Below the pieces are notes generated by a model that did no database searches, was not told the origin of the DNA, and saw only the letters and a program-made list of their open reading frames with translations. The position numbers and the translations under genes were made by a program. This document shows positions 13,897-29,162 of a stretch of 64,000 bases of DNA, piece after piece. The stretch covers positions 594,542 to 658,541 of the forward strand of contig LEKQ01000001.1 of NCBI GenBank assembly GCA_001443005.1, written 5' to 3'. Within the stretch, counting starts at the first letter, position 1. Each line of letters opens with the position of its first letter. The DNA is from a bacterium GBS-1. GTDB lineage: Bacteria > Synergistota > GBS-1.

Positions 13897-15552
13897 TCAC
13901 TCCAGGGATCTTCTAACCGCTCCCTTTGACGCGCTCTCAACGAAAAGCCTATAATATCTCAGGTAGCTGTTTTCAGGTATAAAGGAGCGATTGACCTCCT
14001 GTACCTCTCCTTTTCTCCTTTTATATTCTTCCTCTGATATCAATAGGTCTACCCTCTTCCTCCCGAGGTCTATCCTTATAACATCACCATCCCTAACTAT
14101 GGAGAGCGGTCCTCCTGCCGCCGCCTCAGGGGAAACATAAGCTATAGAGATGCCGTAAGAAGCCCCGCTAAGCCTGCCATCGGTTATGAGTGCAACGTTC
14201 TTATATCTATTTATTATCTCAACACACCTATGAAGCTCCCTCATGCCCGGACCTCCACAAGGCCCCTCGTATCTTATGATGATAACCTCCCCATCCTTAA
14301 GGTCATTGCTTGATGCATACTCCATAAACTCATCCTCCGAGTTAAATACCCTAGCTACCCCTTCAAAGGGATCCTTCAAAACGTCCACCAGCGCAGACAC
14401 CTTAAGCAGGGCTCCATCAGGAGCAAGGTTTCCTCTCAAGACTTTTATAGCTCCACCCTTAGCTATGGGGTCGGAAACCGATCTTATGATTGACTTCAAA
14501 GGCCTGAATCCCTCACTCTTCCCAATGATATCCCTCCAGGTATCGTTAAGGACCGTCTTTCTATCAAGGTTAAGATAATCCTTTAGTTCTCTTATCAATG
14601 CAACCACTCCGCCAGAAAAATACAGATCTATAACGGTATTCTCGTCGCTATTGGGAGTAACTTGAGCAATCAGGGGAACACTCTCGCTTATCCTCTCAAA
14701 ATCCTCCATGCTTATCTCTATCCTTAGCTCATGAGCTATGGCAGGAATGTGAAGAACAGCGTTTAGAGAACCACCTATAGCCATAACTACAGCTATTGCA
14801 TCCTCAAAAGCTTCCCTCGTCATTATCGCCGAAGGTTTCAAGCCCATCTCTATTAAGCGAACAGCTTGCTCTCCGGTTAATCTAGCTAAGTTATATCTCT
14901 GACTTGTTCCCGCTGGAGTTAAAGCTGACCCTGGCAATCCCACACCCAAAACCTCAGCTACTATACACATGGTATTTGCCGTTCCCAAAAATGGGCAAAC
15001 ACCTGGACCAGGATAATACCTCTCCGTGATGTCAAGCAGCTCATCCTCGGAGACCTTACCCTCAAGAAAGCTCCTTCTCGCCATCTTGGACTCCTTAGGC
15101 TTGATATAGTTGCACATCGGTCCTGCTCCCAACCAAATAGAGGGAAGGTCTATCCTAGCCATAGCCATAAGCATACCAGGGACGATCTTGTCGCAGGAGG
15201 AGAGAAAAACCAAACCATCGAATATATCGTGTCCCTTCACCATAGATTCTATCGAATCAGCGATCAACTCCCTGCTTGGGAGGCTATATTTCATGCCCTT
15301 ATGCCCCTGAGCTATACCATCGCATATAGCTATCGTGTTGAACTCGATTGGAACTCCACCAGCCTTGTAAACCCCTTCTTTTACCTTCTCGGCCAGGTCT
15401 CTTAAAGGGACATGCCCAGGGACTATTTCGTTCCAAGAGTTGACTATACCTACTATGGGCTTGTTAAGATCCGCTCGGGAAAAACCACAAGAAATTAGAT
15501 GCCCCTTTATAAGCTGTCTAACGTAGTTCGGAAAAGCACTCAATCGGTTCAT
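13897..15552 (-). CDS. IlvD/Edd-family Fe-S dehydratase no. 2 (sugar-acid dehydratase candidate)
   Basis: 551 aa with [44 protein letters not shown] and TDGRLSGAS blocks. Confidence 0.88.
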   Translation of the reverse strand: MNRLSAFPNYVRQLIKGHLISCGFSRADLNKPIVGIVNSWNEIVPGHVPLRDLAEKVKEGVYKAGGVPIEFNTIAICDGIAQGHKGMKYSLPSRELIADSIESMVKGHDIFDGLVFLSSCDKIVPGMLMAMARIDLPSIWLGAGPMCNYIKPKESKMARRSFLEGKVSEDELLDITERYYPGPGVCPFLGTANTMCIVAEVLGVGLPGSALTPAGTSQRYNLARLTGEQAVRLIEMGLKPSAIMTREAFEDAIAVVMAIGGSLNAVLHIPAIAHELRIEISMEDFERISESVPLIAQVTPNSDENTVIDLYFSGGVVALIRELKDYLNLDRKTVLNDTWRDIIGKSEGFRPLKSIIRSVSDPIAKGGAIKVLRGNLAPDGALLKVSALVDVLKDPFEGVARVFNSEDEFMEYASSNDLKDGEVIIIRYEGPCGGPGMRELHRCVEIINRYKNVALITDGRLSGASYGISIAYVSPEAAAGGPLSIVRDGDVIRIDLGRKRVDLLISEEEYKRRKGEVQEVNRSFIPENSYLRYYRLFVESASKGAVRRSLE

Positions 15553-15588
15553 TCAAGATCAACTCCCTCCATGAAGCGAAAATGGCTT

Positions 15589-16479
15589 TCATAGCAAACC
15601 AAGCCTCCTTAAGCCCTCTTTTATCTTTTCCCTTACCTCTTCGCTCGCTGGTCTGAAGGGTTCTCTCGGATACATCTTTATCCCGCGTAGGTTAACCATG
15701 GTATAAGCTCCTACGGTAGTGGTATTAGCGAGCCTCATAAGGTCTCTAACGGCCATCACCCTATTGTGAACCTCTATCACCTTATCCTTAGGGGCACCGC
15801 TCATCACCACATCATAAAGCTCCTTACAAAGCTCTGGAAAAGCGTTACCCAACCCTGGAATAAAGGCTTTGATGCCCAAAGAGGACGCAGGAACAAACAG
15901 AGCCTCGGTTCCTAAAACCACATCGAAGCCTTCTTTTTCTACCTTTCTCTTGAAATCCGATAGGACCATCAAATCGAAGCTACTATCCTTAACACCATGC
16001 ACACCTATATCCGCCAACCTCTTAAGCAAGCCCACGCTAACGGCATACCCGACAGTTTTGGGATTGTTATAAACATAAACAGGCACATTAACTGCATCAA
16101 CGATTCTTTTGAAATAAAATAAGACATCCTCCTCGGCATGATGATAGTAGAAAGGAGGAACCGCTGAAACAGCATCAGCACCTATCTCCTCAGCGTGTTT
16201 AGCGAGCTCAACAGCATCCCTCGTGCTTATGCTTCCCACATGAACAATAACCGGGACCCTCCCCCCGACCTCCTTCACAATTATCTCCGCAACCCTCTTT
16301 CTCTCCTCGAGGCTAAGCAAAGGTCCGCAGCCATAGGTCCCAAGGATGAAAAGGCCATCCACCGTCCCTAAAAGGAAGCTCGTAAAATCCCTCAAAGCTC
16401 CCTCATCTATATCGCCGTTTGCATCGAAGGGAACGATCATCGGCGGAATTACCCCTCTCAACTGGGTGATACCCATCAA
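15589..16479 (-). CDS. DapA/NAL-superfamily class I aldolase or dehydratase (KD(P)G-aldolase-like)
   Basis: 296 aa. It has LGTYGCGPLLSLEERK where DapA has GTTGE; as I recall, archaeal KD(P)G aldolases read GTTGLGP.LS at this position. The Schiff-base Lys lies in HGVKDSS. Confidence 0.8.
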   Translation of the reverse strand: MMGITQLRGVIPPMIVPFDANGDIDEGALRDFTSFLLGTVDGLFILGTYGCGPLLSLEERKRVAEIIVKEVGGRVPVIVHVGSISTRDAVELAKHAEEIGADAVSAVPPFYYHHAEEDVLFYFKRIVDAVNVPVYVYNNPKTVGYAVSVGLLKRLADIGVHGVKDSSFDLMVLSDFKRKVEKEGFDVVLGTEALFVPASSLGIKAFIPGLGNAFPELCKELYDVVMSGAPKDKVIEVHNRVMAVRDLMRLANTTTVGAYTMVNLRGIKMYPREPFRPASEEVREKIKEGLRRLGLL

Positions 16480-16498
16480 AACACCCCCTTAAGGATCT

Positions 16499-18028
16499 TC
16501 ATCCCATTGTCTCTTGCAACTCGCTAATCTCCCTAAACTCATCCTGCAGCTTATGATAAATCTTCCAATATATCCTATATAACCTCTCGTATAAAACCCT
16601 TAGCCGCTCATCAGGCTCGATGCAATCGACTAACTGGACGGCCTTGGGAAGGATATCCTCATAGCTTTTTATATACCCAACGCCCCTCATGGCCATAACC
16701 GCTGCACCGAAAGAGGAAGCCTCCTCCATATTAACCCTAACTATTGATCTCCCAAGAACGCTTGATAGAACACCCGCCCAAACTTTAGACCTCATCAAAC
16801 CACCGGTTCCCCTAAGCTCTGTAGGGACGCTAACGACCTCTGAGACCGCCTCATATATACTCCTCATTCGAAAGGCTACACCCTCGATTATCGCCCTCGC
16901 TATATGTCTTCTATCATGGTGAAGCGCAAGACCGAACAAAATTCCTCTAACGTCAGCGTTCCAATAGGGGCCTCTCTCGCCGGTTAAAAAGGGCAAAAGC
17001 AAAAGCCCTCCTGCTCCTGGTTTGACCTCCTGAACCCATCTTTCGGCCTCCCTATAGAGGTCTAGGCCCATTTCTTTCAAATCCTCGTAAAAGCCATCGA
17101 TATACCAAGCCATCACAAGCCCAGCGTTGTTTATGGCGCACCCCACAAGCCAGGTATCCTCATCTAATATGTAACACCACGTTCTTCTTTTCTTATCAGT
17201 CATGGGACCCTTAACGGCCATTCTAACCGCACCGCTCGTTCCGATCATTATAGCCATCTTCCCTTCCCCGATTGAGTTGGAACCTAAAGACGATAAAGCA
17301 CCATCTCCAGCACCTATAACGATGGGAGTTCCCTCCCTTAAACTGGTTATGAGGCTAACTTCCTTAGAGACTTTTCCAACAACGGTTGAGGGGTAAACGG
17401 TCTCGCTCATTTTACCAATACTTATATCGAGGCTATCAAATATGGATTCCTCCCATTTTCTCTTATATATGTTAAGTAAACCGCTACCAGAGGCCACAGA
17501 GATATCGATGGCGAAGACCTTCGCTAAATTCCAAAGAACATACTCCTTTATGGTCATTATCCTATAAGCTTCATCAAGAGCTTGAGGGGTTTCATGCTTA
17601 AACCATATGAGCTTGGCGAGAGGATAGTTCACATGGAGGGGGCAACCTGTAATATCGTAAAGGTAATCAAACCTCTCTCGATAGCTCTTAAGCAGATCGT
17701 TAGACCTATTATCCCCCCAGATAATGAGATTGGTCTTTTTCCTCACATCAGAATCCACTAACATTATGCTGTGAAAAACGCTACTTAAACCTATGGCACC
17801 TATCTCATACTCACCGTTGGCAAGCTCCAAGGATTCCTTTATCGAGCTATATACAGCGGAGACAACCTCGTCAGGATCCTGCTCCACCCAACCAGGCTTA
17901 GGTTGAATAATCCTATAGTTTCTCTTAGCCATCGATATTAATCTTCCATCGCCATCGAAGATACAACATCTCGCCCCGGTTGTTCCTATATCAATACCTA
18001 TGAAAGCCGTCTTAGCCATCATAAACAC
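16499..18028 (-). CDS. FGGY-family carbohydrate kinase (gluconokinase/xylulokinase-like)
   Basis: 509 aa with IGIDIGTTGARC, GWVEQDP and VIGAGDGALSS blocks. The true start may be the fourth Met. Confidence 0.85.
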   Translation of the reverse strand: MFMMAKTAFIGIDIGTTGARCCIFDGDGRLISMAKRNYRIIQPKPGWVEQDPDEVVSAVYSSIKESLELANGEYEIGAIGLSSVFHSIMLVDSDVRKKTNLIIWGDNRSNDLLKSYRERFDYLYDITGCPLHVNYPLAKLIWFKHETPQALDEAYRIMTIKEYVLWNLAKVFAIDISVASGSGLLNIYKRKWEESIFDSLDISIGKMSETVYPSTVVGKVSKEVSLITSLREGTPIVIGAGDGALSSLGSNSIGEGKMAIMIGTSGAVRMAVKGPMTDKKRRTWCYILDEDTWLVGCAINNAGLVMAWYIDGFYEDLKEMGLDLYREAERWVQEVKPGAGGLLLLPFLTGERGPYWNADVRGILFGLALHHDRRHIARAIIEGVAFRMRSIYEAVSEVVSVPTELRGTGGLMRSKVWAGVLSSVLGRSIVRVNMEEASSFGAAVMAMRGVGYIKSYEDILPKAVQLVDCIEPDERLRVLYERLYRIYWKIYHKLQDEFREISELQETMG

Positions 18029-18043
18029 CTCAAGCTTTAAGAA

Positions 18044-18802
18044 TCAAACTGCCGTCCAGCCTCCGTCCACGAAGATTATCTGACCTGTGATATAAGAAGC
18101 CTCCTTAGAGGCCAAAAAAACCGCAACCCCTTTAAGGTCCTCCAAAGATCCAAACCTACCCAAGGGTATCCTTTTTATCATGCTTTCAAGCCTTTCTCTA
18201 TCGCTGAAGACCGCCTCGGTCATCCTGGTCTTGTACCATCCTGGCGCAATAGCGTTCACCCTTATGCCATACGCCCCCCACTCCTTAGCGAGCGCCTTAG
18301 TTAATGAGCCAACACCGCCCTTTGAAGCAGCATAGGCACATATGTTAGGAACGGTCACCTCAACCACGGTCAAGGAGCAAACGTTGATTATTGAGGGGGA
18401 ATCTGACCTCCTCAGTAATCTAAAAGCCTCCCTACACACGTAAAAGGTCCCAAAGAGATTAACCTCGATTATCTCCCTAAAATCATCGATTGGAAACTCC
18501 TCAGCGGGATACCTCCTATTGATGCCTGCAGCGTTCACAACGACATCAAGCCTACCATAGTTTCTCTCAATATTATCCATTATATTCTTCACTTCATCGT
18601 ATTTCGAGACATCGCATCTTAAGCCCGAAGCTTTAACACCATAGCCTTGACTTATCCTTAGGGCAGTCTCCTTTGCCTCCTCTATGGTCCTGCTAACTAT
18701 CAATACATCGCTTCCCGCCTCGGCGAGCCCCTCAGCGAGAGCCATACCTAATCCCCTTGACCCGCCAGTTACAAGAGAGAGCCTTCCTCTAAGGTTAAAC
18801 AT
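18044..18802 (-). CDS. SDR-family oxidoreductase (gluconate 5-dehydrogenase / KduD-like)
   Basis: 252 aa with TGGSRGLG and the catalytic YAASKGG motif. The N-terminus closely resembles what I recall of the Thermotoga gluconate 5-dehydrogenase. Confidence 0.82.
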   Translation of the reverse strand: MFNLRGRLSLVTGGSRGLGMALAEGLAEAGSDVLIVSRTIEEAKETALRISQGYGVKASGLRCDVSKYDEVKNIMDNIERNYGRLDVVVNAAGINRRYPAEEFPIDDFREIIEVNLFGTFYVCREAFRLLRRSDSPSIINVCSLTVVEVTVPNICAYAASKGGVGSLTKALAKEWGAYGIRVNAIAPGWYKTRMTEAVFSDRERLESMIKRIPLGRFGSLEDLKGVAVFLASKEASYITGQIIFVDGGWTAV

Positions 18803-20276
18803 TTGCCCCCGTTATCCTCCTTCTCCCAAGAATCATTAGCACTATCAATACCCAAAGAATTATACAAATAGGCCTAGTAAAGAAAGGAGTTATGCTTTCA
18901 TTTAACGTCAAAGCCCTTCTTAGGTTCTCATCAGCCATCCTACCCAAAATCAACCCCAGGGTAAATGGAGCGAGAGGATAGCCGTGATTTCTCAGTACGT
19001 AACCTACTAAACCGAAAAGCAAGGTTACGTAGACGTCAAAAATGGAGTGATTCACAGCGTAGGCACCTATAACGCAGAGAGTTATTACTATAGGCATTAA
19101 GATGTCCTTCTTCACCAGCAACACCTTTATAAGTACGTTGCTTATAAGAAGCCCAAAGATAAGAAGCATAAAGTTAGCCAAAACCTGCATAGCAACGTAA
19201 TCATAGAAAAATTGCGGGGACTCAATGAAGATAAGCGGACCTGGCCTTATCCCGTGCAACAATATGCCTCCCAATAAAACGGCAGCAGCTCCGCTACCAG
19301 GTATGCCAAGAGCTATCATCGGAATCGAAGCTCCACCTATGCATGCGTTATTCGCTACCTCACAAGCGATAACCCCTTCCTTGCTCCCCTTACCTATCAT
19401 CTCCCTTTCCACACCGAGATTTTTGACAGCACCATAGCTTACCCAAGCGGCCACATCTTCACCAACGCCAGGAATAACACCGATCAGAATACCTATTATC
19501 GCAGACCTTATGGTCGTCTTCCAGTATCTAAAAACCTCTACTAAGGGAATACTAACCCTGAGCTTCTTAGGATCAACCACTAACTCCCCCTGTTTCGGCT
19601 CCCTCATCACGCAAAAAACCTCGGTTAAACCGAAAAGGCCTATCAAGGCAGGTATCAGAGATATGCCACTCATCAAATTTAGGCTGCCGAAGGTGAACCT
19701 TGGATAGGTGGTCATGTTATCCATACCTATCATAGCGGTCATAAGACCGAGAAAGCCCGTTATCCACCCCTTTAATTGCAACTCACCCATAGACAAGCTT
19801 CCACATATCATCACTCCCATTATGGTCAAAACGAAGAACTCCCAGGAACCAAACTTCAGGGCTATCTTAGCAAGCAAAGGGGTAGAAACAGCCAAGGCTA
19901 AGACGCCTATTAAACCACCCCAGAAGGAAGCTAAACGAGCAAGCCCTAAAGCTTCCCCAGCCATCCCATTCTTAGCTAATTCGTATCCATCTATAGCGGT
20001 AGCTGCAGCTGAAGGGGTACCAGGGATGTTAAGCAAAATGGCACTATTGGATCCTCCATATATACCACCGCAATAGAGAGCTACGAGCATCGGTATGGCA
20101 TATCGAGGGTCCAGACCATAGGTTATACCACTTAAGAGGGCTATACCCATCGTAGCTGTAAGACCAGGTAAAGCCCCGATTATTACCCCAAGGACAGAAG
20201 ATAGTGACATCAAAGATAGCAGCTTTAAGTCAAGAAGACCAACGAAACCATCAAAAAGCCTTAATAAGCTTTCCAC
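18795..20276 (-). CDS. tctA: tripartite tricarboxylate transporter (TTT) large permease TctA, copy 1
   Basis: 493-aa polytopic membrane protein with GALPGLTATMGIALL and GIPGSGAAAVLLG blocks. Its 3' end overlaps the SDR start by 8 nt. Confidence 0.88.
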   Translation of the reverse strand: MESLLRLFDGFVGLLDLKLLSLMSLSSVLGVIIGALPGLTATMGIALLSGITYGLDPRYAIPMLVALYCGGIYGGSNSAILLNIPGTPSAAATAIDGYELAKNGMAGEALGLARLASFWGGLIGVLALAVSTPLLAKIALKFGSWEFFVLTIMGVMICGSLSMGELQLKGWITGFLGLMTAMIGMDNMTTYPRFTFGSLNLMSGISLIPALIGLFGLTEVFCVMREPKQGELVVDPKKLRVSIPLVEVFRYWKTTIRSAIIGILIGVIPGVGEDVAAWVSYGAVKNLGVEREMIGKGSKEGVIACEVANNACIGGASIPMIALGIPGSGAAAVLLGGILLHGIRPGPLIFIESPQFFYDYVAMQVLANFMLLIFGLLISNVLIKVLLVKKDILMPIVITLCVIGAYAVNHSIFDVYVTLLFGLVGYVLRNHGYPLAPFTLGLILGRMADENLRRALTLNESITPFFTRPICIILWVLIVLMILGRRRITGANV

Positions 20277-20300
20277 CTCGATCCCTCCTCAAAGCAGAAC

Positions 20301-20783
20301 TTAGGGCAACCTCACTCCAAGTAAATGTCCAAATGAGTACATCAAGCTCAAACTCACCAAAAGAGCGATCCCGATCGCGACGTGTAGCTTGACACTTTTA
20401 AAGTAAAGATAGGACCCAACTAGATAGAGAAAAGTCGCCAAAGTATAGGGTATCTTCCCCAAAAGAGCAACATAGGCGACCGTTAAAGCTATAAAGACGA
20501 CGAGCCTTTGTGTCTTGAGTCTCTCCTCCCTGCTTCCCTCATTTCTCCCCTTTGACTCCGAGAGGCTCCAACCTTTAAGGTTTCTTTTAAAGATAAACAA
20601 GAGGTAAAACATAAGCGCAGCTGAAAGAACCATAAGAATTGCCGATAAAACTGCGGGGGTAAGACCTGGGGAGTCATGAGGGTCTCCAGTAGGCATCTTT
20701 AGGGATTCAAACAAGCCATAAGCACCGATCAGGAAAACGAAAAGGGCAATCGCAAACTCCCACCACCATCTCTTCCTATCCAT
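20301..20783 (-). CDS. tctB: TTT small membrane subunit TctB, copy 1
   Basis: 160 aa with about 4 hydrophobic helices, positioned between tctC and tctA. Confidence 0.7.
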   Translation of the reverse strand: MDRKRWWWEFAIALFVFLIGAYGLFESLKMPTGDPHDSPGLTPAVLSAILMVLSAALMFYLLFIFKRNLKGWSLSESKGRNEGSREERLKTQRLVVFIALTVAYVALLGKIPYTLATFLYLVGSYLYFKSVKLHVAIGIALLVSLSLMYSFGHLLGVRLP

Positions 20784-20813
20784 CCTGAACTAAATCGCCT
20801 CCCCCTTAAAACA

Positions 20814-20845
20814 GTGCATGGCAGGAGGAAGAACCTGCCATGCAC
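20814..20845 (-). terminator. intercistronic GC-rich stem-loop between tctC1 and tctB1 (partial terminator or mRNA stabiliser)
   Basis: A perfect 12-bp stem, GTGCATGGCAGG / CCTGCCATGCAC, with an 8-nt loop, 24 nt after the tctC1 stop. On the minus strand it is followed by TGTTTTAAG. Confidence 0.5.
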
Positions 20846-20869
20846 CCATCTCTATCTAAGGGTCCAAAC

Positions 20870-21877
20870 TTACTCCGGCTTAGGAATCTTGAAATCCTCA
20901 GGAGATTTCTTCGCAAGCTTCAACTCATGTAAGAGCCAGCTAACCAAAGATGTCTCTCTCTTAGCGTACTCCTCAGACTTCTGCCTATCATAGCCAAGAT
21001 AAACCATGGCCTGCTTCTGTACGAACTCCTTGAACTTAGGAGACTGAACGGCCTTAGCGTATGCCTTATCTATCGCATCTACAACCTCTTGAGGAACATC
21101 CCTAGGAACTGCTATGCCCCACCAACCACCGAAAGGTAGATATTTCTTAATATCAGGAGCCCACTTCGCCACAGTGGGAACCTTACCTACGCCCTCTATC
21201 TCAATATCCTCGTCATTGAACGTCGCAAGGATCCTAAGCTGGCCACCCTTTATCAAATCTATGGCCTCCATTAAGCCTGGAATTCCCGCTTTCGTCTCCC
21301 CTGCCACAGCCGCGGCAGCAGCCGCACGACCGCTGGGATAAACCACTATCTTAAAGTCCCCTCCAACAGATTTCTTAAGCATCTCCAAAGCTATATGCCA
21401 CCCGTTGGCTATACCAGAGTTAGCAAGGGTTAAGTCCTTCCCCATCTCCTTCATAGCCTTAATGAAATCATCCATGGTCTTTATGGGAGAATCGGGCTTA
21501 ACGCATATGGTCGCTACACCAGCAGCAGCGATCCACATATGAAAGTCCTTATAAGAGAAGGGACCAAGGTCCATCACCTGATACATCCTTATGTTATCTG
21601 AGAGTCCTAACCAAATATAACCATCATGAGGCTGACCCATGACGTAAGCTGTCGCAACAGCTCCAGTGGCCCCAGGCATATTTATGACATTAATAGGAAC
21701 CCCTAGGATCTGCTGCATCTCTGCCGCCAATGCTCTATTGACCTGGTCTGTTGCTCCACCCGCACCGAACTGAACTATAACGGTTATAGGTCTCGTTGGA
21801 TAGGCAGCCCATCCCATACCTGCGAAGACACCCACGAACAAGCCCAACACCGCCAACATAACAAGAGCCTTCTTCAT
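20870..21877 (-). CDS. tctC: TTT periplasmic solute-binding protein TctC (Bug family), copy 1
   Basis: 335 aa with a signal peptide (MKKALVMLAVLGLFVGVFAGMGWA), the FGAGGATD and MPGATGAVA blocks, and the tctCBA gene order. Confidence 0.85.
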   Translation of the reverse strand: MKKALVMLAVLGLFVGVFAGMGWAAYPTRPITVIVQFGAGGATDQVNRALAAEMQQILGVPINVINMPGATGAVATAYVMGQPHDGYIWLGLSDNIRMYQVMDLGPFSYKDFHMWIAAAGVATICVKPDSPIKTMDDFIKAMKEMGKDLTLANSGIANGWHIALEMLKKSVGGDFKIVVYPSGRAAAAAAVAGETKAGIPGLMEAIDLIKGGQLRILATFNDEDIEIEGVGKVPTVAKWAPDIKKYLPFGGWWGIAVPRDVPQEVVDAIDKAYAKAVQSPKFKEFVQKQAMVYLGYDRQKSEEYAKRETSLVSWLLHELKLAKKSPEDFKIPKPE

Positions 21878-21901
21878 CTTTCTTCCCCCCTTTAGATTAA
21901 T

Positions 21902-21919
21902 TTCTTAAAGCTTTAAGAA
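21902..21919. promoter_or_regulatory. perfect 18-bp palindrome TTCTTAAAGCTTTAAGAA upstream of tctC1 (operator candidate)
   Basis: The sequence is its own reverse complement. It lies 24 nt upstream of the tctC1 ATG, just upstream of the AGGGGGGA Shine-Dalgarno sequence. It shares its half-sites with the palindrome at 26351-26366. Confidence 0.4.
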
Positions 21920-21954
21920 CCTCTTCCTTTTCACATCACCTCCCTCTACGGCTT

Positions 21955-23109
21955 TTACATGGCAGATCTGCATATCTGGATCAGATCTTCCAAGGTAGGA
22001 GTTCTCGGATTAATGGGTATCCCAACGTTACTCATCGCCTCACGACATATATCTTCAATGGCATCCTCTTTGACGCCTACCTCTCTTAGCCCTGCCGGTA
22101 TACCCACATCTCTACACAAAGCCTTTACCGCCTCAACCGCCCTACGTGCAGCCTGAAGCTCCGTAAGACCGGAAACGCTCTCTCCCAACGCTTCAGCTAT
22201 CTTAGCAAACTTAGAAAGGTTGCCAATGAGATTAAACTCCATACCATAGGGTAATAGGATAGCGTTTATCACACCATGAGGCACGTCGAAGTACCCACCC
22301 ATAACAGCTGTGATAGCGTGAATAACGCCCAAGCGCGTATTTGCGAAAGCCAAGGCTGCCATCGTGCTTCCTAAGAGCATGTTATAGCGAGCTTCAATAT
22401 TATCCCCCTTAGCATAGGCAGCCCTCAGATACTTTCCAATAAGATAGATAGCGTGATAGGCAAGCGACTCCGATATAGGCTCAGTTACAACGTTCGTGAA
22501 GGACTCTATAGCGTGAGTTAGAGCATCTAAACCAGTAGCAGCGGTCACGCTTGGCGGCATACTCAAGGTTAGAAGGGGGTCGCAAACCGCAATGTGAGGA
22601 GCGATCTTAGGATTACCTATGCCCATCTTAACTTTCTTCTTGGTATCCTTTATCACCGTCACCCAAGTTATCTCGCTACCTGTGCCAGCCGTAGTAGGAA
22701 CGGCAATGAGAGGAAGTATCCTGTTCTTCGGAGGGTTCTTCCAAAAGTAGGCTATCTCCCCCTCGTTAGTTAAAAGTAGACCGATCGCCTTAGCGGTGTC
22801 TATCGAGCTTCCTCCCCCAATCGCCAATAGGAGATCACACCCAAACTCCCGAGCAACTTTAACTCCCTCCTCGACTATCTCAACCGTCGGATTAGGCTCA
22901 ACTTTAGAGAAAACCTCAGTTCTAAAGCCAGCAATATCCAACTTGGCCTTTATGCCATTTACGATGTTCGTGCACATCAATCCCGGATCCGTAACTATTA
23001 AGACGCTCTTTCCGCCCAGTTCGTTAACCCTGTCTACTATTTTTTCGGCCTCTCCTATCCCAAAATACAACTTAGTCGGAATCTGCCAAACGAAGGGCTT
23101 AACAAACAT
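21955..23109 (-). CDS. iron-containing (group III) alcohol dehydrogenase
   Basis: 384 aa with GGGSSIDTAKAIG, the metal-binding His region LDALTHAIES and VPHGVINA. Confidence 0.88.
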   Translation of the reverse strand: MFVKPFVWQIPTKLYFGIGEAEKIVDRVNELGGKSVLIVTDPGLMCTNIVNGIKAKLDIAGFRTEVFSKVEPNPTVEIVEEGVKVAREFGCDLLLAIGGGSSIDTAKAIGLLLTNEGEIAYFWKNPPKNRILPLIAVPTTAGTGSEITWVTVIKDTKKKVKMGIGNPKIAPHIAVCDPLLTLSMPPSVTAATGLDALTHAIESFTNVVTEPISESLAYHAIYLIGKYLRAAYAKGDNIEARYNMLLGSTMAALAFANTRLGVIHAITAVMGGYFDVPHGVINAILLPYGMEFNLIGNLSKFAKIAEALGESVSGLTELQAARRAVEAVKALCRDVGIPAGLREVGVKEDAIEDICREAMSNVGIPINPRTPTLEDLIQICRSAM

Positions 23110-23209
23110 GCTATCCCCCCTCTATACTTTATTATTGTGATAATATCATCCATCCAAACAAATCTATCCTTATCCGCCAACGGAACAACATTCGCTATTT
23201 CTAAATGAT

Positions 23210-23238
23210 ATCTTAACATAAGCACCCGACAGCGTCAA
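23210..23238 (-). promoter_or_regulatory. candidate sigma-70 promoter for the Fe-ADH-led supra-operon
   Basis: Minus strand: TTGACG (23238-23233), a 17-nt spacer, then TAAGAT (23215-23210). This would give a 5' UTR of about 100 nt before the adh ATG at 23109. Confidence 0.4.
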
Positions 23239-23299
23239 GCCATGTTCGTATACCCAGTATGCTTGGATTAATGGTAATACCTCAACTATTTCGCATATA

Positions 23300-23320
23300 G
23301 GAGAATCTTTTAGATTCTCT
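23300..23320 (-). terminator. weak stem-loop after tctA2
   Basis: An 8-bp stem, GAGAATCT/AGATTCTC, with a 3-nt loop, beginning 5 nt after the tctA2 stop. No clear U-tract follows. Confidence 0.3.
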
Positions 23321-23325
23321 CTATC

Positions 23326-24795
23326 TTAGTCCTTTAATTTACGCACCACCTTCCAAATAGATGGTCCTAAAAGGGTTAAAACTATAAGAGAAAACAAGAT
23401 TAAAGATATGGGACGGGTTAGGAAAGGGATAATGCTACCACCTGACTTTATAAGCCCTATACGGAGATTGTCCTCGATCATCCTACCAAGGATTAGAGCT
23501 AAAACCATTGGAGCAAGAGGCATGTTTATTTTCTCCATAACGTAGCCGAGTAAGCCAAACAGCGCCATTAGCCATATATCGAAGACGCTGTTTCTTATGG
23601 CGTAGGAGCCTACCATGGAAAACAGAACCACAGCACTCATAACTACACCTGCTCTAAGGCTAACCAAGCGAGAAAAGGCCTTTATCCCCAGCCACCCAAC
23701 CGGTAAAAGCATTATCTGCACCAGCAGGGCTACAGCGAAAATCTGATATACCAAATCCTTAGATTGAGCGAAGATGAGCGGTCCAGGCTTCAAGCCATAC
23801 ATCAGCATAGCGCCTAGGACTATCGCAGTTATAGAATCGCCAGGTATCCCCAGTGCCAGTGCAGGGATCCAAGTTCCACCTATAGCAGCATTATTCGCAC
23901 TGGTTGGAGCTATAACGCCACGGGGGCTACCGGAACCTATCTCATTACCACTAAGGCTTTTTTCCGCTCCATAGGCAACCCATGCAGCGATGTCCGCCCC
24001 CGCTCCAGGAAGAGCACCTATGAAAGTCCCTATCAAAGAGCTCCTTATTATAATGAACTTATTGCGATACATAAGCTTTAAAGCCTCAAGCACATCCAAC
24101 TTCCCATTGATTTTAACGCTTGGTAAGTCCAAGCTCTCCCTAAAGGACAATCTCTTCAATACCTCGGAAATTCCAAAAAGTCCTATCATAGCTGGGATAA
24201 AGCTAACACCATCCATCAGCTCCGTGATCCCAAAGGTAAACCTGGGATATCCCGTGGTGACATCTATACCTATGGTAGATATGAGAAGCCCAAACAAGGC
24301 TGAAAGAAGCCCCTTGATGGTATTACCTCTACTTAAAACGGCAGCCATGCTTAAACCAAAGACCCCCAACCAGAAATACTCGAAGTGCGTGAACTTCAAG
24401 GCTACCTCAGCTAACGGGGGAGCAGTGAAGATCAATATCAAAACCCCTATCAATCCTCCAAGAGCAGAACAGAAGAGATCCAAAGTTAAGGCTAAAGCTC
24501 CTTTACCCTTCTTATTCATCTCAAAGCCATCTAAAACCGCTGCCCCAGAGGCTGGCGTACCCGGAATCCTTAAGAAGGTCGCGGGAATATCGCCTGCAAA
24601 TATGGCGGTGAAGGAAACACCTATAACCATAGCCAAACCCGTTAGGGGCTCCATGTAATAGGTCAATGGTATTATGAGAGCTACGGCCATCGTAGCCGTA
24701 AGGCCAGGCATAGCGCCCACGAAAACGCCAAAGGCCATTGAAAGCAAAAGCGGAAAAAGAACCTTTAAGGAAAGGATGGATAAAAGATAAGACAT
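23326..24795 (-). CDS. tctA: TTT large permease TctA, copy 2
   Basis: 489 aa, a paralogue of 18795-20276, with GAMPGLTATMAVALI and GIPGDSITAIVLG blocks. Confidence 0.88.
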   Translation of the reverse strand: MSYLLSILSLKVLFPLLLSMAFGVFVGAMPGLTATMAVALIIPLTYYMEPLTGLAMVIGVSFTAIFAGDIPATFLRIPGTPASGAAVLDGFEMNKKGKGALALTLDLFCSALGGLIGVLILIFTAPPLAEVALKFTHFEYFWLGVFGLSMAAVLSRGNTIKGLLSALFGLLISTIGIDVTTGYPRFTFGITELMDGVSFIPAMIGLFGISEVLKRLSFRESLDLPSVKINGKLDVLEALKLMYRNKFIIIRSSLIGTFIGALPGAGADIAAWVAYGAEKSLSGNEIGSGSPRGVIAPTSANNAAIGGTWIPALALGIPGDSITAIVLGAMLMYGLKPGPLIFAQSKDLVYQIFAVALLVQIMLLPVGWLGIKAFSRLVSLRAGVVMSAVVLFSMVGSYAIRNSVFDIWLMALFGLLGYVMEKINMPLAPMVLALILGRMIEDNLRIGLIKSGGSIIPFLTRPISLILFSLIVLTLLGPSIWKVVRKLKD

Positions 24796-24802
24796 CTACA
24801 CT

Positions 24803-25294
24803 CTACCCCCTTAAGAGTGAAAATATAACTCCCTCAGGTAAGGGTAGCTTAAATATAACCTTGAAAATCCAATGGATTAACAAAGCCAAGACTACAGAAT
24901 AAACTAGAGATGAAAACCACCTAACTCTCATAAATCGCATTAGGAAAACTCCCAAGAGCGTTATACCAATCACGCTTCCGAAAATCTTCAGAACCGGGTA
25001 AAAGAGAAACCCCACACCTATGATAATTACGAAGCTCAAGCTTTTATATAAGCTGACGCCTTTAAATAGCGATGATCTCAATTCCTCCCTCGCTTTAAAT
25101 AGAGAGGTCAAACCAGATACAAAAAAGTAAAAACCAAAGATCAAGATCAAAAAAGCTAAGAGATCCGGGAAAAAGCTCGGTCCAGGCAACTTTTCCCCTC
25201 TTACCGTAAACTTCGGGAAAAACCTGGAATGGTAAAAAACGAAGCCTGATAAAGCGAAACAGCTCAAACTCAATATAAGGTCACTCCACCCCAT
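24803..25294 (-). CDS. tctB: TTT small membrane subunit TctB, copy 2
   Basis: 163 aa with 4 hydrophobic helices, positioned between tctC2 and tctA2. Confidence 0.7.
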   Translation of the reverse strand: MGWSDLILSLSCFALSGFVFYHSRFFPKFTVRGEKLPGPSFFPDLLAFLILIFGFYFFVSGLTSLFKAREELRSSLFKGVSLYKSLSFVIIIGVGFLFYPVLKIFGSVIGITLLGVFLMRFMRVRWFSSLVYSVVLALLIHWIFKVIFKLPLPEGVIFSLLRG

Positions 25295-25319
25295 TTAGCC
25301 ACAATCCCCCTTTAAAGGC

Positions 25320-25349
25320 GGGGCAAGCTCGTGGGAACGAGCTTGCCCC
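25320..25349 (-). terminator. intercistronic GC-rich stem-loop between tctC2 and tctB2
   Basis: A perfect 12-bp stem, GGGGCAAGCTCG / CGAGCTTGCCCC, with a 6-nt loop, 13 nt after the tctC2 stop and 25 nt before the tctB2 ATG. Confidence 0.5.
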
Positions 25350-25362
25350 AAAGAGAATACCT

Positions 25363-26337
25363 TTACTTCTTAAGATATCCGCCTAGCTCGAGAACCGTCT
25401 TCCAAGCTTTATCCTGCTCCTCAACGAATTTCCTGAACTCCTCTCCCCTTCTTACCTTTATACCAAAGCCATTGGTTTCCATGAACTTCTTGAAAGCTTC
25501 AGAGTTAGCTATCTCAATAATGGCATCCTCGAGCTTCTTCTTTATCTCAGCAGGGGTTCCTTTAGGAACACCCACACCCCTCCACGTACCAGCGCTCCAG
25601 TTAATACCGAGCTCCTTTAAGGTCGGTACATCTGGGAATGCAGGAAGCCTCTCATCGGCCATAACAGCGAGAGCTCGAGCCTGACCGCTCTTTATATAAG
25701 GAGCGGCTTCCGCCAACGAACAGGTAACCACGTGGACATGCCCACCTAAAAGCTCGGTCAAAGCTTGAGCAGCGCCCGTGGTAGACGGAATCCACTTAAC
25801 GGAATCCACAGGCAAACCAGCAGCGTGAAGCATACCTATCCTAGCTAAATCCCATATCCCACCCGCTGCGACGCCGGAGAAAAGAAGCTTACCTGGATTA
25901 GCCTTTATATCGTCCAGTAGCTCCTTGAGATTCTTCCATGGGGCATCGGCCTTGACCGTTACTCCTGCAGCATCCTCGTTAACCTGAGCTATATAGTCGA
26001 AAGCCTCATAGGTTAGGTCCGTGAGGCCCATCCAGTGCATTGTGGCTAACTCCAATGTCACGATGGTTATGGTGTATCCGTCTGGGGGTGCATAAGCACC
26101 AGCGGCGTGCCCCACCGCTCCACCGCCACCCGTTTTGTTAACCACAGTGAAGGGCTGACCAAACTTCTTAGAAAGCTCATCTGCCAAAAATCGAGCAAGC
26201 CTGTCGGTGCCCCCACCAGCACCCCAAGGACAGATAACCGTAACCGCCTTCTCTGGATAGGCCGCCCACGCGCTTAAGGTAAAGACCCACGTAAACCCCA
26301 TAACCGCCAAAACTACCACCCATAAAAGCTTCTTCAT
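25363..26337 (-). CDS. tctC: TTT periplasmic solute-binding protein TctC, copy 2
   Basis: 324 aa with a signal peptide ending SAWA and the WGAGGGTD and KTGGGGAVG blocks. Confidence 0.85.
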   Translation of the reverse strand: MKKLLWVVVLAVMGFTWVFTLSAWAAYPEKAVTVICPWGAGGGTDRLARFLADELSKKFGQPFTVVNKTGGGGAVGHAAGAYAPPDGYTITIVTLELATMHWMGLTDLTYEAFDYIAQVNEDAAGVTVKADAPWKNLKELLDDIKANPGKLLFSGVAAGGIWDLARIGMLHAAGLPVDSVKWIPSTTGAAQALTELLGGHVHVVTCSLAEAAPYIKSGQARALAVMADERLPAFPDVPTLKELGINWSAGTWRGVGVPKGTPAEIKKKLEDAIIEIANSEAFKKFMETNGFGIKVRRGEEFRKFVEEQDKAWKTVLELGGYLKK

Positions 26338-26350
26338 TTTGAAACCCCCT

Positions 26351-26385
26351 TTCTTAAATTTAAGAAGCTTTGCTTAAAAAGCAAA
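26351..26385. promoter_or_regulatory. two adjacent palindromes upstream of tctC2: TTCTTAAATTTAAGAA (perfect, 16 bp) and TTTGCTT-AAA-AAGCAAA
   Basis: 26351-26366 is its own reverse complement and abuts the AGGGGG Shine-Dalgarno sequence of tctC2. 26369-26385 has 7-bp inverted arms around a 3-nt centre. Confidence 0.4.
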
Positions 26386-26430
26386 TATTACCAGTTTCAC
26401 CTCCTTCCTTATGTTAAACTCTCTGTTTAA

Positions 26431-26459
26431 AGTATAGCAAAAGAAGAACCATCTTTCGA
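26431..26459 (-). promoter_or_regulatory. candidate promoter for the tctC2B2A2 unit
   Basis: Minus strand: TCGAAA (26459-26454), a 17-nt spacer, then TATACT (26436-26431). The -35 element is weak. Confidence 0.3.
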
Positions 26460-26523
26460 GATCTCCAAAACCTTTTCGGGAAAAGATGTGCTGAAAAAAT
26501 CTCTTAAATTTTTTAGTCTATTC

Positions 26524-26997
26524 TTAAAAGCACCTTTTTCTGAGATTAAACCTTCTTAAAATGGGCAGAAACATGCCTCCAACGAGAGCTAACGCCCCAA
26601 GAGCGCCGGGCCTGGAGGAGATTTCACAACCGCCGCACCACCAGTCAAAGTCAACCCTTATGCTACGAGGCCCCCACCATGTAGAATGACCGTATTCATC
26701 CTCAACCTTAACGCATACATCGTACCACCCCTCGTACCACACCCTATACCATAGAGTGTCGCTCCACTCCACCTCAACGCCATTCACATACCATGTATAG
26801 TAAATGTAATCACCATCAGGATCATAGGCTTCAACGCGCCCCTTTATGATCGCATATTCATCACACCAATCGTATTCGTAATAATCCACATCCAACCAAA
26901 CGTTCGTTATTATAGGAGGCGAGTTCTGCCCCAAAGCATATCCAGATATACATAAGAGCAAGACAAGGGAAACAAGCGATATCTTAAGCCCCTTCAA
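26524..26997 (-). CDS. small secreted Trp/Tyr-rich PKD/Ig-like-domain protein with a C-terminal hydrophobic anchor or sorting-signal-like tail
   Basis: 157 aa. It has a signal peptide (MKGLKISLVSLVLLLCISGYALG/Q) and an NSPPIITNV...AYDPDGDYIYYTWYVNG pattern like PKD/cadherin-like Ig domains. It contains 11 Trp and 14 Tyr. The tail is CGGCEISSRPGALGALALVGGMFLPILRRFNLRKRCF. The TTG start lies in a TTGA overlap with the upstream stop, 9 nt behind GGGAGG. Confidence 0.6.
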   Translation of the reverse strand: MKGLKISLVSLVLLLCISGYALGQNSPPIITNVWLDVDYYEYDWCDEYAIIKGRVEAYDPDGDYIYYTWYVNGVEVEWSDTLWYRVWYEGWYDVCVKVEDEYGHSTWWGPRSIRVDFDWWCGGCEISSRPGALGALALVGGMFLPILRRFNLRKRCF

Positions 26998-28232
26998 ATG
27001 AAACTTCCTCCCTTAGCGCGTTCCATCAAATCAAGGAGAACTTCAACCACCTTTTGAGCAAACTCAGGATCATTTATGTTGTTATCGAGCTCGTAAACTG
27101 GTATCCCAGGTCTAAGATTAGCCTTTATCGAATCGAAGCAAGCCCTATCAGCCTCAGGATCCCAGAAGGCTTGACCAGGACTGTCAAGCATGGAAACACC
27201 CTTTAGCGGTATAAGCACGGCCACCGGCCCCTTGCTTTCGTTCGCCGCCCTAGCTATCCACTCCCCTATGGCTTTGTTTTCTTCAACGTTCGTCCTAACC
27301 AAGGTGACATTAGGATTCCACTCGTATATCTTTCTGCCCCTATACTTCTCCGGAACCGTATCTTTCGCCCAGAAATTGATCATATCGACACAACCCGGAA
27401 CTAAAACGGCAGGGATACCTCTTCTTGCAGCAGCAAAGAGCCTATCCTTCCCCGCCGATAGAACCCCTCCACCTATCTCATCAGCTAACTCCGTAGTCGT
27501 TATATCAGCCACAGCTGAAACCAAGCCCTGATCAATGAGCATCTCCATGGTTCTCCCACCGGTCCCAGTAGCGTGAAACACCAGTATCTCAAAGCGATCG
27601 CCCAAAAGCTCTTTAACCTTCTCGACGCACGGTGTCGTGTTCCCAAACATGCTTATAACTATAACTGGCTTCTCAGGCTCCTTAAGCATCTCCTCATAGG
27701 CACCATGCTCAAGCATCCCCGCGAGCGCCCCCACGGCGTTCTTATAAATCGCCCTGCTAATCCTATTTAAGCCAGCCACATCAACTATTGAGGGAAACAT
27801 CACTATATCCTTAATCCCAACATATCGAGATACATCTCCACCAGCAACCGTAGACACCATCACCTTAGGAATACCTATGGGCAAAGCTTGCATGGCCGTT
27901 GTGGCTATTATGGTCCCAGCGCTTCCTCCCATACCAAGTATGCCATGAAGATTCCCTTCATCATATAACCTCCTAACTACCTCCTTAAGCCCCTTGGTCA
28001 TCGTATCCATCGCTAAGCTCTTATCCTTTTTCGCCTGGAGCTCCTCTATGCTCACTCCCCCCGCCTTTGCCACCTCTGCCCTCGTTATATCTGGTTCGAA
28101 GAAGGGCTTCCCCATCACACCAAAATCAACCACAATAACCTCAAAACCAGAGCTCTTGAGCAGATCCCTAACGTAGGCAAAATCCTGCCCTTTGGTATCT
28201 AAGGCACCGACTAAAACAACCTTCTTAGTCAT
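26994..28232 (-). CDS. UPF0261 / Tm-1-like ATP-binding-domain protein
   Basis: 412 aa. The N-terminus KKVVLVGALDTKGQDFAYVRD and general layout match my recollection of the UPF0261 family, which is homologous to the N-terminal half of tomato Tm-1. Confidence 0.7.
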   Translation of the reverse strand: MTKKVVLVGALDTKGQDFAYVRDLLKSSGFEVIVVDFGVMGKPFFEPDITRAEVAKAGGVSIEELQAKKDKSLAMDTMTKGLKEVVRRLYDEGNLHGILGMGGSAGTIIATTAMQALPIGIPKVMVSTVAGGDVSRYVGIKDIVMFPSIVDVAGLNRISRAIYKNAVGALAGMLEHGAYEEMLKEPEKPVIVISMFGNTTPCVEKVKELLGDRFEILVFHATGTGGRTMEMLIDQGLVSAVADITTTELADEIGGGVLSAGKDRLFAAARRGIPAVLVPGCVDMINFWAKDTVPEKYRGRKIYEWNPNVTLVRTNVEENKAIGEWIARAANESKGPVAVLIPLKGVSMLDSPGQAFWDPEADRACFDSIKANLRPGIPVYELDNNINDPEFAQKVVEVLLDLMERAKGGSFI

Positions 28233-28247
28233 ACTATCCTCCCTCCC

Positions 28248-29087
28248 CTAACGAGCAAGCCTCAGCGACTTAAAGGCCTCAACCTGCGCTTTTATCGCCC
28301 TCTCTGTAGGCAGGCGCTCGATGCTTGAAGCGCCAAAGAACCCCACGACACCAGGCATCATCGCAAGAGCCTTACCCACATTCTCAGGCTCATCGAAAGG
28401 CCCTCCATGGCATATCACCAGTATATCCTTTCTAACTCTCTTAGCAGCTTCAGCGATAGACATCACCTTCTCAACGGCTTGCTCCAAGGTCATGGCCACA
28501 CCAGCTCCTATCGTACCACCGGTAGTTAAACCAACATGAGCAACGATAACATCAGCACCAGCCTTAACCATCTCAACGGCCTGGTCCTCATCAAACACAT
28601 AGGGTGTGGTAAACATATCAAGCTCATGAGCTATCCTTATCATCTCGATCTCCTTATCATACCCCATACCTGTGGCCTCAAGGTTAGCCCTGAAGTTACC
28701 GTCAATTAGACCAACAGTTGGGAAGTTCTGAACGCCGGAGAAACCCATTTCCTTAAGCTCCCTTAAGAAAACGGGCATAAGCCTAAAGGGATCTGTGCCG
28801 CAAACGCCAGCCAAAACAGGGGTGTTTTTCACAACCGGCAAGACCTCCCTCGCCATCTCAACAACTATAGCGTTAGCATCACCATAGGGCATAAGACCCG
28901 CTAGGGAACCTCTCCCACCCATCCTGAATCGACCAGAATTATAGATAACTATCAGATCTATTCCACCAGCCTCAGCCATCTTCGCGGATATCCCTGTTCC
29001 AGCTCCACCACCCACTATGGGCCTTCCAGCCTCGATCTGAGCGTGAAGGCGAGCTAATATTTCTTCCCTCGTAAAACCGATCTTCAT
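28248..29087 (-). CDS. phosphoenolpyruvate-hydrolase-like TIM-barrel protein (Tm-1 C-terminal-half homologue)
   Basis: Blocks [36 protein letters not shown] and [12 protein letters not shown]. The start ATG at 29087 is 6 nt behind GGGAGGTG; the ORF-track GTG at 29096 lies inside that Shine-Dalgarno sequence. Confidence 0.7.
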
Positions 29088-29162
29088 TAGCAACACCTCC
29101 CTTAAAAAAATCTTTTCTGACTATATTATAAAGCTTAGACAATCTTTATATCAACTTAAAAG

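Follow-up and report, generated by a model that had tools for sequence, protein, structure and literature searches.

Two Related Perfect Palindromes in the Leaders of Paralogous tctC Genes of an Uncultured 77 °C Synergistota-Like Bacterium

Identical Arms at Equivalent Leader Positions

Two perfect palindromes, S1 and S2, with identical 8-bp arms occupy equivalent positions in the leaders of tctC1 and tctC2, which encode the binding proteins of two tandem tripartite tricarboxylate transporter (TTT) operons in a 64-kb stretch of the genome of bacterium GBS-1 (contig LEKQ01000001.1, positions 594,542 to 658,541; hereafter, the window), and the relatedness of the two is non-random. The reading that we tentatively adopt, as a narrow favorite over an mRNA leader element, is that they form a DNA dyad recognized by a protein, a putative operator of the roadblock type. 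All genes of the tctC region lie on the minus strand, and "upstream" refers to gene orientation. The sites and the sequences adjoining them are as follows.

21902-21919 (minus strand): S1, perfect 18-bp palindrome TTCTTAAAGCTTTAAGAA, in the 77-nt intercistronic region between the Fe-alcohol dehydrogenase (Fe-ADH) gene and tctC1, 24 nt upstream of the tctC1 ATG.
21885-21890 (minus strand): tctC1 Shine-Dalgarno (SD) core, GGGGGG.
26351-26366 (minus strand): S2, perfect 16-bp palindrome TTCTTAAATTTAAGAA, in the tctC2 5' leader, directly adjoining the SD, 13 nt upstream of the tctC2 ATG.
26345-26350 (minus strand): tctC2 SD, AGGGGG; right arm of S2 plus SD reads TTTAAGAAAGGGGG, an extended-SD context.
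26369-26385 (minus strand): inverted repeat TTTGCTT-TTT-AAGCAAA (gene orientation), 2 nt upstream of S2.

Both palindromes were found exactly where the first-pass annotation had reported them, ahead of the two tctC genes. Read directly from the sequence, symmetry is complete through the center in both (9+9 bp in S1, 8+8 bp in S2), with AGCT and AATT at the centers of the two palindromes. The annotation had described the same half-sites around a 2- or 0-nt center; the arms are indeed identical at 16/16 positions, but when the two sites are aligned on their dyad axes only 4/8 half-site positions agree. In each leader, the palindrome follows a GGAGGTGA box and precedes the true SD. TctC1 and TctC2 have 32% protein identity, and the leaders have only words of 8 to 9 nt in common; common descent of the two leaders was thus rejected as the source of the palindromes, since retained ancestry cannot explain identical arms in leaders that are otherwise unrelated. 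The second inverted repeat near S2 does exist at a distance of 2 nt, although in the direction of the gene it precedes S2, whereas it had been said to follow; its predicted hairpin is weak (−4.7 kcal/mol at 37 °C, 0 at 77 °C).

A search for TTCTTAAA-N0-4-TTTAAGAA returned 2 matches in the 64-kb window vs. 0 in 100 dinucleotide shuffles. S1 and S2 are the sole full sites (N0-2) in the window, where Markov models of orders 2 to 6, trained on the window with the sites masked, give an expectation of 4 to 7 × 10−4 per 64 kb, and about 1 × 10−4 within the 4,783 nt of intergenic DNA. High-order background models matter because CTT and AAG words abound in this genome: AAGCTT is present in 80 copies in the window vs. 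17 expected and CTTAAG in 84, both about fivefold over-represented and mostly intragenic, an excess that reflects a strong preference for CTT (Leu) and AAG (Lys) codons and that inflates chance matches of motifs built from such words. These counts bear out the earlier statements that the half-site by itself is common (9 isolated copies outside the palindromes vs. 9 to 10 expected in the window, the background level) and that two full palindromes are unlikely by chance (<10−3 expected per 64 kb even at order 6); the AT-rich background spoken of there was not found, the window having a GC content of 45.7%, not especially AT-rich. A third partial copy, TTCTTAAAGCTT, before the SD of the FGGY kinase gene (18032-18043) was rejected because the 12-mer occurs twice elsewhere vs. 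0.5 to 0.6 expected, which is not significant, and extra half-sites upstream of the tctC2 promoter (26553-26560 and 26521-26528) were rejected as response-regulator direct repeats because the half-site frequency equals background.

A Putative Operator Within Transcribed Leaders

The genes and predicted promoters that bear on how the sites might be read are listed here.

25363-26337 (minus strand): tctC2 (Pfam TctC).
24803-25294 (minus strand): tctB2 (Pfam TctB).
23326-24795 (minus strand): tctA2 (Pfam TctA).
21955-23109 (minus strand): Fe-ADH gene, separating the two tandem TTT operons.
20870-21877 (minus strand): tctC1 (Pfam TctC).
20301-20783 (minus strand): tctB1 (Pfam TctB).
18795-20276 (minus strand): tctA1 (Pfam TctA).
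26431-26459 (minus strand): predicted tctC2 promoter TCGAAA-17-(TG)TATACT, a consensus match only.
29125-29154: predicted promoter TTGATA-18-TATAAT, from the consensus scan.
23210-23238: predicted promoter TTGACG-17-TAAGAT, from the consensus scan.

In the part of the window scanned (13 to 30 kb), the three promoters listed are the only σ70-like intergenic candidates upstream of genes, and the consensus scan detected none in the 77-nt gap between Fe-ADH and tctC1. The context of the tctC2 −10 element, TTGCTATACT, resembles TTGCTATAAT of the distant relatives L153/L154. Both palindromes are predicted to lie within transcribed leaders of minus-strand genes. An internal promoter at either site was rejected for want of a −10-like hexamer, and so was an intrinsic terminator, the stems being AU-rich with one G-C pair, followed by no U-tract and not listed by the terminator scan.

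According to the reading that we tentatively favor, S1 and S2 would have arisen in the transcribed leaders of the binding-protein genes in the lineage where the two tctCBA operons became neighbors. The reader, either a dimer or a pair of loosely coupled monomers, would be encoded outside the window and would recognize both sites as double-stranded DNA; from its position downstream of the promoters, it would serve as a roadblock or co-regulator that links the expression of the two transporters with each other and with that of the genes that follow. Because the paralogs are so divergent and their leaders otherwise unrelated, identical arms call for a common reader, and we infer protein binding and its consequences. 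Dyad symmetry through the center would arise by chance about once in 256 cases; it is unneeded for a hairpin loop and natural for a DNA dyad, and AT-rich DNA dyads are unaffected by the weakness of RNA hairpins at 77 °C.

Operators downstream of the promoter are well known: cre/CcpA, PurR, and CodY sites occur inside leaders, and the "7-2-7" heptamers of NarL tolerate a variable half-site arrangement. S1 and S2 share with such operators a perfect AT-rich dyad with 8-bp arms between promoter and start codon and the placing of two sites before functionally linked operons, and the 8-2-8 layout of S1 recalls NarL 7-2-7. They differ in having spacings of 0 vs. 2 bp, in lacking degenerate regulon members, and in not being conserved in orthologous leaders, and S1 differs further in lying between two cistrons rather than near a promoter.

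The observations that weigh against an operator can be taken together. Half-site spacing is not constant (2 bp in S1, 0 bp in S2), a feature that the first-pass annotation had flagged as unusual for one DNA-binding protein, and the 4/8 agreement about the dyad axis points the same way. S2 falls at about +59 to +74 from the predicted transcription start, some 65 to 80 bp downstream of the predicted −10 element, S1 is intercistronic, and neither overlaps a promoter predicted by the consensus scans. Elsewhere in the window there are no degenerate copies with up to 3 mismatches beyond background-level 3-mismatch matches, and 166 kb of related loci hold no copies with up to 2 mismatches; two perfect sites without degenerate copies in 64 kb plus 166 kb do not resemble a typical evolved regulon. 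OmpR-type regulators bind direct repeats, not 16- to 18-bp palindromes, and the sole DNA-binding protein of the window is a PhoB/OmpR-like regulator encoded 11 kb away. No plausible regulator gene was found near the sites, the gaps of the window holding ordinary genes, and no transcription factor gene is present in the 29-kb one-strand cluster to which the tct operons belong.

The regulator had been placed outside the window, and no local candidate is linked to tctC; the window nevertheless does encode a DNA-binding response regulator (37859-38566, minus strand) and a histidine kinase (40098-41570), a PhoB/PhoR-like pair 11 to 14 kb from the tct operons, beside glnA, for which every NCBIfam match is far below cut-off. 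The PhoB/OmpR-like regulator gave no TctD-specific signal. Its product has an OmpR/PhoB-type winged helix and an N-terminal receiver that Pfam did not detect at E ≤ 0.001 and that may be degenerate, its gene adjoins one for an HDOD/HD-GYP-like protein, and the histidine kinase gene is divergent. In known TTT (tctCBA) operons, control lies with two-component activators encoded next to the operon, TctDE, BctDE, and CitAB (PMC5812351). The transporter family is the same here, as the Pfam TctC, TctB, and TctA matches show, whereas the operons of the window have no adjacent two-component genes.

Absence from the Leaders of Relatives

Contigs from 77 °C samples and enrichments of Great Boiling Spring encode proteins identical to those of the window, and the close relatives carry the labels of Synergistota metagenome-assembled genomes (MAGs) or "bacterium 42_11." Contigs of the same species are 99.83 to 99.98% identical, so close that strain polymorphism is uninformative on constraint. 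Leaders from related loci were compared. For tctC1, these came from L147/L151 (93% protein identity), L148 (90%), and L022 (87%), which share the syntenic Fe-ADH/tctC1 junction, and from the more distant L024, L026, and L153/L154 (54 to 64%); for tctC2, they came from L001 (91%) and L149/L150. The coding sequence beside the relatives' leaders is 77 to 82% identical to that of the window. Thermotogota orthologs of tctC2 have no leader, tctC beginning 2 to 5 nt after an aldolase gene.

The palindrome is absent from every one of these leaders, both those of tctC1 (L147/L151, L148, L022, L024, L026, and L153/L154) and those of tctC2 (L001 and L149/L150), so that the absence of conservation before orthologous tctC genes, which had been named in advance as refuting a shared operator, was observed in some six independent leaders of the tctC1 family and in two of tctC2. 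It weighs against the favored reading in four tctC1 lineages, at 87 to 93% identity or below, and in two tctC2 lineages. In GCA_025060595.1, a relative's MAG with both paralogs on different contigs, no palindrome is common to the two leaders. L148 has a looser inverted repeat, TTCTTGAA-N8-TTAAAGAA, at the same place, with both arms recognizably homologous to those of S1, and imperfect quasi-palindromes stand at corresponding places in L148 and L001. A metagenome motif scan gave at least 120 loci; among the matches listed, the DNA is unrelated and AT-rich (median GC 0.345), about half lie inside open reading frames (ORFs), and none is near a tctC homolog, which speaks against the favored reading and led us to reject a widespread tctC operator. 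Among the genomes compared, the two tctCBA operons are adjacent only in the species of the window.

Judged from the leaders compared, absence in relatives rules out an ancient operator, not a species-specific one, and the S1/S2 pair is evolutionarily young and species-specific. What stands of the shared operator first proposed is thus a non-random pair at equivalent places with flanks that are not homologous; it is not conserved, it lies off the predicted promoters, and its spacing differs.

RNA Structure and Complementarity to the First Codons

It is almost as probable, though we hold it slightly more doubtful than an operator, that the sites act in the mRNA. In that reading, the left arm would belong to an "anti-start" segment that pairs with codons 2 to 5 (AAG AAG ...) of its own gene, the right arm would double as the A/U-rich 5' flank of an extended SD (TTTAAGAAAGG) and serve as the competing partner, and these rival pairings would together adjust translation initiation or the fate of the mRNA, possibly in a temperature-dependent manner. 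Both sites lie in transcribed leaders beside the SD, and variable center spacing (0, 2, and, in L148, 8) is natural for hairpins.

The palindromes form only weak hairpins. Isolated S1 and S2 have predicted energies of −3.7 and −3.0 kcal/mol at 37 °C and −1.1 kcal/mol at 60 °C, and at 77 °C, where energy parameters are extrapolated, the minimum free energy (MFE) structure is the open chain. Ensemble occupancy of the palindrome hairpin is 0.06 to 0.3, that of a minor conformer, and partition function calculations give a mean arm-arm pairing probability at 77 °C of 0.20 for tctC2 and 0.28 for tctC1; the AU-rich 5' untranslated hairpin first offered as the alternative to an operator is thermodynamically weak. 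Folds of the whole leaders are no more stable than those of shuffles (z = +0.56 and −0.19), and with Rfam 15 no match reached the gathering threshold anywhere in the window, while 21700-26700 yielded none even at E ≤ 1. Judging from the same folding predictions, the organism uses stable stems at places where RNA structure evidently counts: GC-rich hairpins of 12 to 13 bp stand directly 3' of the tctC1 and tctC2 stop codons, before tctB (20814-20845 and 25320-25349, minus strand), with predicted energies at 77 °C of −9.2 and −12.6 kcal/mol, respectively. A hairpin after the binding-protein gene is a classic way to raise its mRNA over that of the membrane subunits, as a 3' stabilizer or partial terminator.

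Pairing of the leaders with the coding sequence also supports the mRNA reading. The first codons, ATG AAG AAG at the start of both tctC genes, have their complement in the left arm (TTCTT...) and the sequence 5' of it; the TTCTT common to both arms follows from the AAG AAG codons common to both genes. The segments concerned are these.

26362-26371 (minus strand): leader segment AAAGCTTCTT, including the outer S2 left arm, a perfect 10-nt complement of tctC2 codons 2 to 4.
26325-26334 (minus strand): tctC2 codons 2 to 4, AAGAAGCTTT, the partner of AAAGCTTCTT.
21915-21925 (minus strand): leader segment AAGAGGTTCTT, including the outer S1 left arm, pairing 5+5 bp around an internal loop with tctC1 codons 2 to 5.
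21863-21874 (minus strand): tctC1 codons 2 to 5, AAGAAGGCTCTT.

The 10-bp pairing of AAAGCTTCTT with AAGAAGCTTT is significant against shuffled leaders (P=0.006), whereas that of tctC1 is not (P=0.59 to 0.72). In L022, CAGCTTTTT pairs with AAAAAGCTG, following the different codons of that gene (P=0.019). The leaders are not alignable, and in place of classical covariation we compared cognate with non-cognate combinations of leader and codons 2 to 6 over ten tctC leaders (the two of the window plus L001, L022, L024, L026, L148, L149, L151, and L153). Cognate duplexes are stronger, at −8.2 vs. −6.5 kcal/mol (permutation P=0.006), and the signal persists over 20 window settings (P=0.0006 to 0.16, with 17/20 below 0.05). 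Five control segments from inside coding sequences showed no cognate signal (P=0.43 to 0.81), nor did the other 49 genes of the window (P=0.22). Without the two leaders of the window the result is borderline (P=0.054), and the test was devised after the pattern had been seen, which makes it a lead. As such, it suggests, from sequence comparison, a recurrent anti-start element in the tctC family.

Modeled ensembles of the two leaders diverge. In tctC2, the start region is the main pairing partner of the S2 left arm (probability 0.54 to 0.61 at 37 to 60 °C, 0.33 at 77 °C), and the AUG context, unpaired at 0.24 to 0.28 at 37 to 60 °C, opens to 0.48 at 77 °C and further when the left arm is scrambled. 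In tctC1, the S1 arms pair only with each other. Scrambling the left arm there makes the SD less accessible in the 37 °C prediction; apart from this, neither arm influences how accessible the SD or the AUG is. An effect of leader/codon pairing is thus predicted only for tctC2, and with the S2 left arm on the start region and the S1 arms on each other, no single RNA mechanism serves both leaders. Complementarity, moreover, accounts for 5/8 arm positions and not for a perfect dyad through the center. Known counterparts are start- or SD-sequestering leader helices and RNA thermometers of the fourU and ROSE types. The tctC2 leader resembles these in its weak AU-rich pairing by the start, in the predicted pairing of its left-arm segment with codons 2 to 4, and in an AUG context predicted to open between 60 and 77 °C, and the cognate complementarity signal of the tctC family points the same way; the tctC leaders differ in that they belong to no Rfam family, the SD itself is predicted to be unpaired, tctC1 shows no effect, the palindrome hairpin is a minor conformer, and predicted stability at habitat temperature is marginal.

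The right arm alone has a familiar counterpart. The sequence TTTAAGAAGGAG is the classic strong extended ribosome-binding site (RBS) context of phage T7 gene 10 and pET vectors, and it resembles the right arm plus SD of tctC2; this explains the right arm only and does not account for an exact inverted copy 0 to 2 nt upstream. It also occurs in primer tails (PMC12285236). When the half-site was sought in the literature as a known operator, nothing turned up beyond the pET/T7 RBS and a XylR site that is unrelated. In the window, (C)TTAAGGGGG is the usual RBS context, standing before many starts, and L148 reads CTTAAAGAAGGAGG; TTAAG-GGGG is a common RBS context in the organism. Combining these elements, one could imagine a three-element translational switch in a hyperthermophile, in which the left arm would alternate between the right arm and codons 2 to 5 and the right arm would be a mimic of the start region fused to the extended SD, but we regard this model as improbable.

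By-Product of Mutation and Other Roles

That the palindromes are non-functional seems unlikely to us, if less so than the switch just described. They would then be by-products of template-switch "correction" of quasi-palindromes or of small inverted duplications of common words (CTT, AAG, AAGCTT, and the TTTAAG-SD context), with no regulatory role. The evolutionary youth of sites missing from all relatives fits this origin, as does perfection through the center, which templated mutation would give; so too do the fivefold excess of CTTAAG and AAGCTT, the site 12-mers (2 seen elsewhere in the window, as given above), the common TTAAG-GGGG context, and the quasi-palindromes of L148 and L001 at the same places, which are possible precursors. 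Yet even high-order backgrounds leave fewer than 10−3 full sites per 64 kb, and the by-product account needs two independent events that yielded identical arms, at matching places, in the leaders of both paralogs among 33 intergenic segments; gene conversion, for its part, would require a homology that the leaders lack.

The least probable explanation considered is some other role, whether a mobile or repeated extragenic palindrome, a pair of recombination sites flanking tctC2BA-FeADH, an RNase site, or a common small RNA target; a similarly small share of probability goes to none of the explanations considered. The sites do bracket a 4.4-kb block, tctC2-tctB2-tctA2-FeADH, that is not contiguous in relatives, in which tctC2BA lies by CRISPR/Csm genes. 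However, the Fe-ADH/tctC1 junction is present in L022, L151, and L148 and is, on that comparison, ancestral, so that S1 is not an insertion scar; the window encodes no recombinase or transposase, and the different center spacings would leave crossover cores mismatched. A recombination-site scar was rejected on these grounds. A dispersed repeat of the repetitive extragenic palindromic (REP) or miniature inverted-repeat transposable element (MITE) kind was likewise rejected, since the 64 kb contain no more than two copies, each in a tctC leader and each short and AT-rich, unlike REP or MITE. AU-rich single-stranded leaders are typical endonuclease targets, and the strong 3' hairpins after both tctC genes would stabilize a processed binding-protein mRNA, but an RNase site does not need a palindrome.

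Other Features of the tctC Leaders and Their Neighborhood

The box upstream of each palindrome is better conserved than the palindromes themselves.

21934-21943 (minus strand): SD-like box GGAGGTGATG, just 3' of the Fe-ADH stop; present in all close tctC1 leaders and followed here by ATG-TGA.
26397-26404 (minus strand): SD-like box GGAGGTGA of the tctC2 leader, with counterparts GGAGGGTGATG in L149 and GAGGGGGTGA in L153/L154.

With the form GGAGG(G)TG(A/G)T(G), it lies about 55 to 60 nt upstream of the true start in the tctC leaders of all close relatives, which conserve it together with the true SD. A start codon that opens a very short ORF frequently comes next: ATG-TGA in tctC1 of the window, ATG-TAA in L149, and 5 to 7 codons in L022 and L148. 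Leader peptides were rejected because the GTG/ATG mini-ORFs after the GGAGGTGA box vary in length and sequence between relatives. From its sequence and position the box could be a ribosome-binding mRNA stabilizer (STAB-SD-like) or a start-stop/mini-ORF element.

The tct operons belong to a single-strand catabolic and transport supercluster of the sugar-acid type, about 29 kb long (349-29096) and with very short gaps, that includes genes for PEP-hydrolase-like, UPF0261, SDR, FGGY kinase, DHDPS-like, ILVD/EDD dehydratase, and altronate/galactarate dehydratase proteins as well as aldehyde:ferredoxin oxidoreductase and 2-oxoacid:ferredoxin oxidoreductase. Directly 3' of the tctA2 stop, a perfect AU-rich hairpin, GAGAATCT-AAA-AGATTCTC (23301-23319), is predicted to be too weak as a terminator at 77 °C, and read-through from tctC2BA into Fe-ADH-tctC1BA is likely. 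In relatives (L022, L149, L151, and L001 compared with 13897-29096), tctC2BA stands beside a molybdopterin oxidoreductase gene and a type III (Csm) CRISPR-Cas locus, in L149 just 3' of a block of cas6-cas1-cas2 genes with a repeat array; the operon has moved, and in the window it is fused to PEP-hydrolase/UPF0261/orf157 on one side and to Fe-ADH-tctC1BA on the other. The nearest named homologs of TctC2 are from Thermotogota (76 to 82% identity), which suggests lateral transfer. The neighboring orf157 (26524-26997, minus strand) has a 4-nt overlap with the UPF0261 gene, and every metagenome assembly calls it; its product has a signal-peptide-like N terminus, a middle rich in Trp, Tyr, and Asp, and a C-terminal hydrophobic stretch with a basic tail, and it has no match in Pfam or NCBIfam.

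Implications

S1 and S2 belong to known kinds of leader cis-elements and represent no new kind of system. If they are not functional, they counsel caution, as striking perfect palindromes can be lineage-specific and unconserved in a CTT/AAG-biased genome. Complementarity between leader and first codons, seen at the level of the tctC family, would contribute a modest, testable point to the understanding of how expression of solute-binding proteins is controlled; were the three-element switch true, synthesis of the binding proteins would be gated by temperature or by co-transcriptional folding kinetics, and the anti-start principle would recur across Synergistota tctC leaders, each following its own codons. 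If the palindromes are functional, two paralogous transporter operons that are neighbors in one lineage would have gained a common control element in a short evolutionary time. To our knowledge, no regulators or operators have been described for this uncultured 77 °C Synergistota-like bacterium, and functional sites of this kind would offer a handle on its gene regulation.

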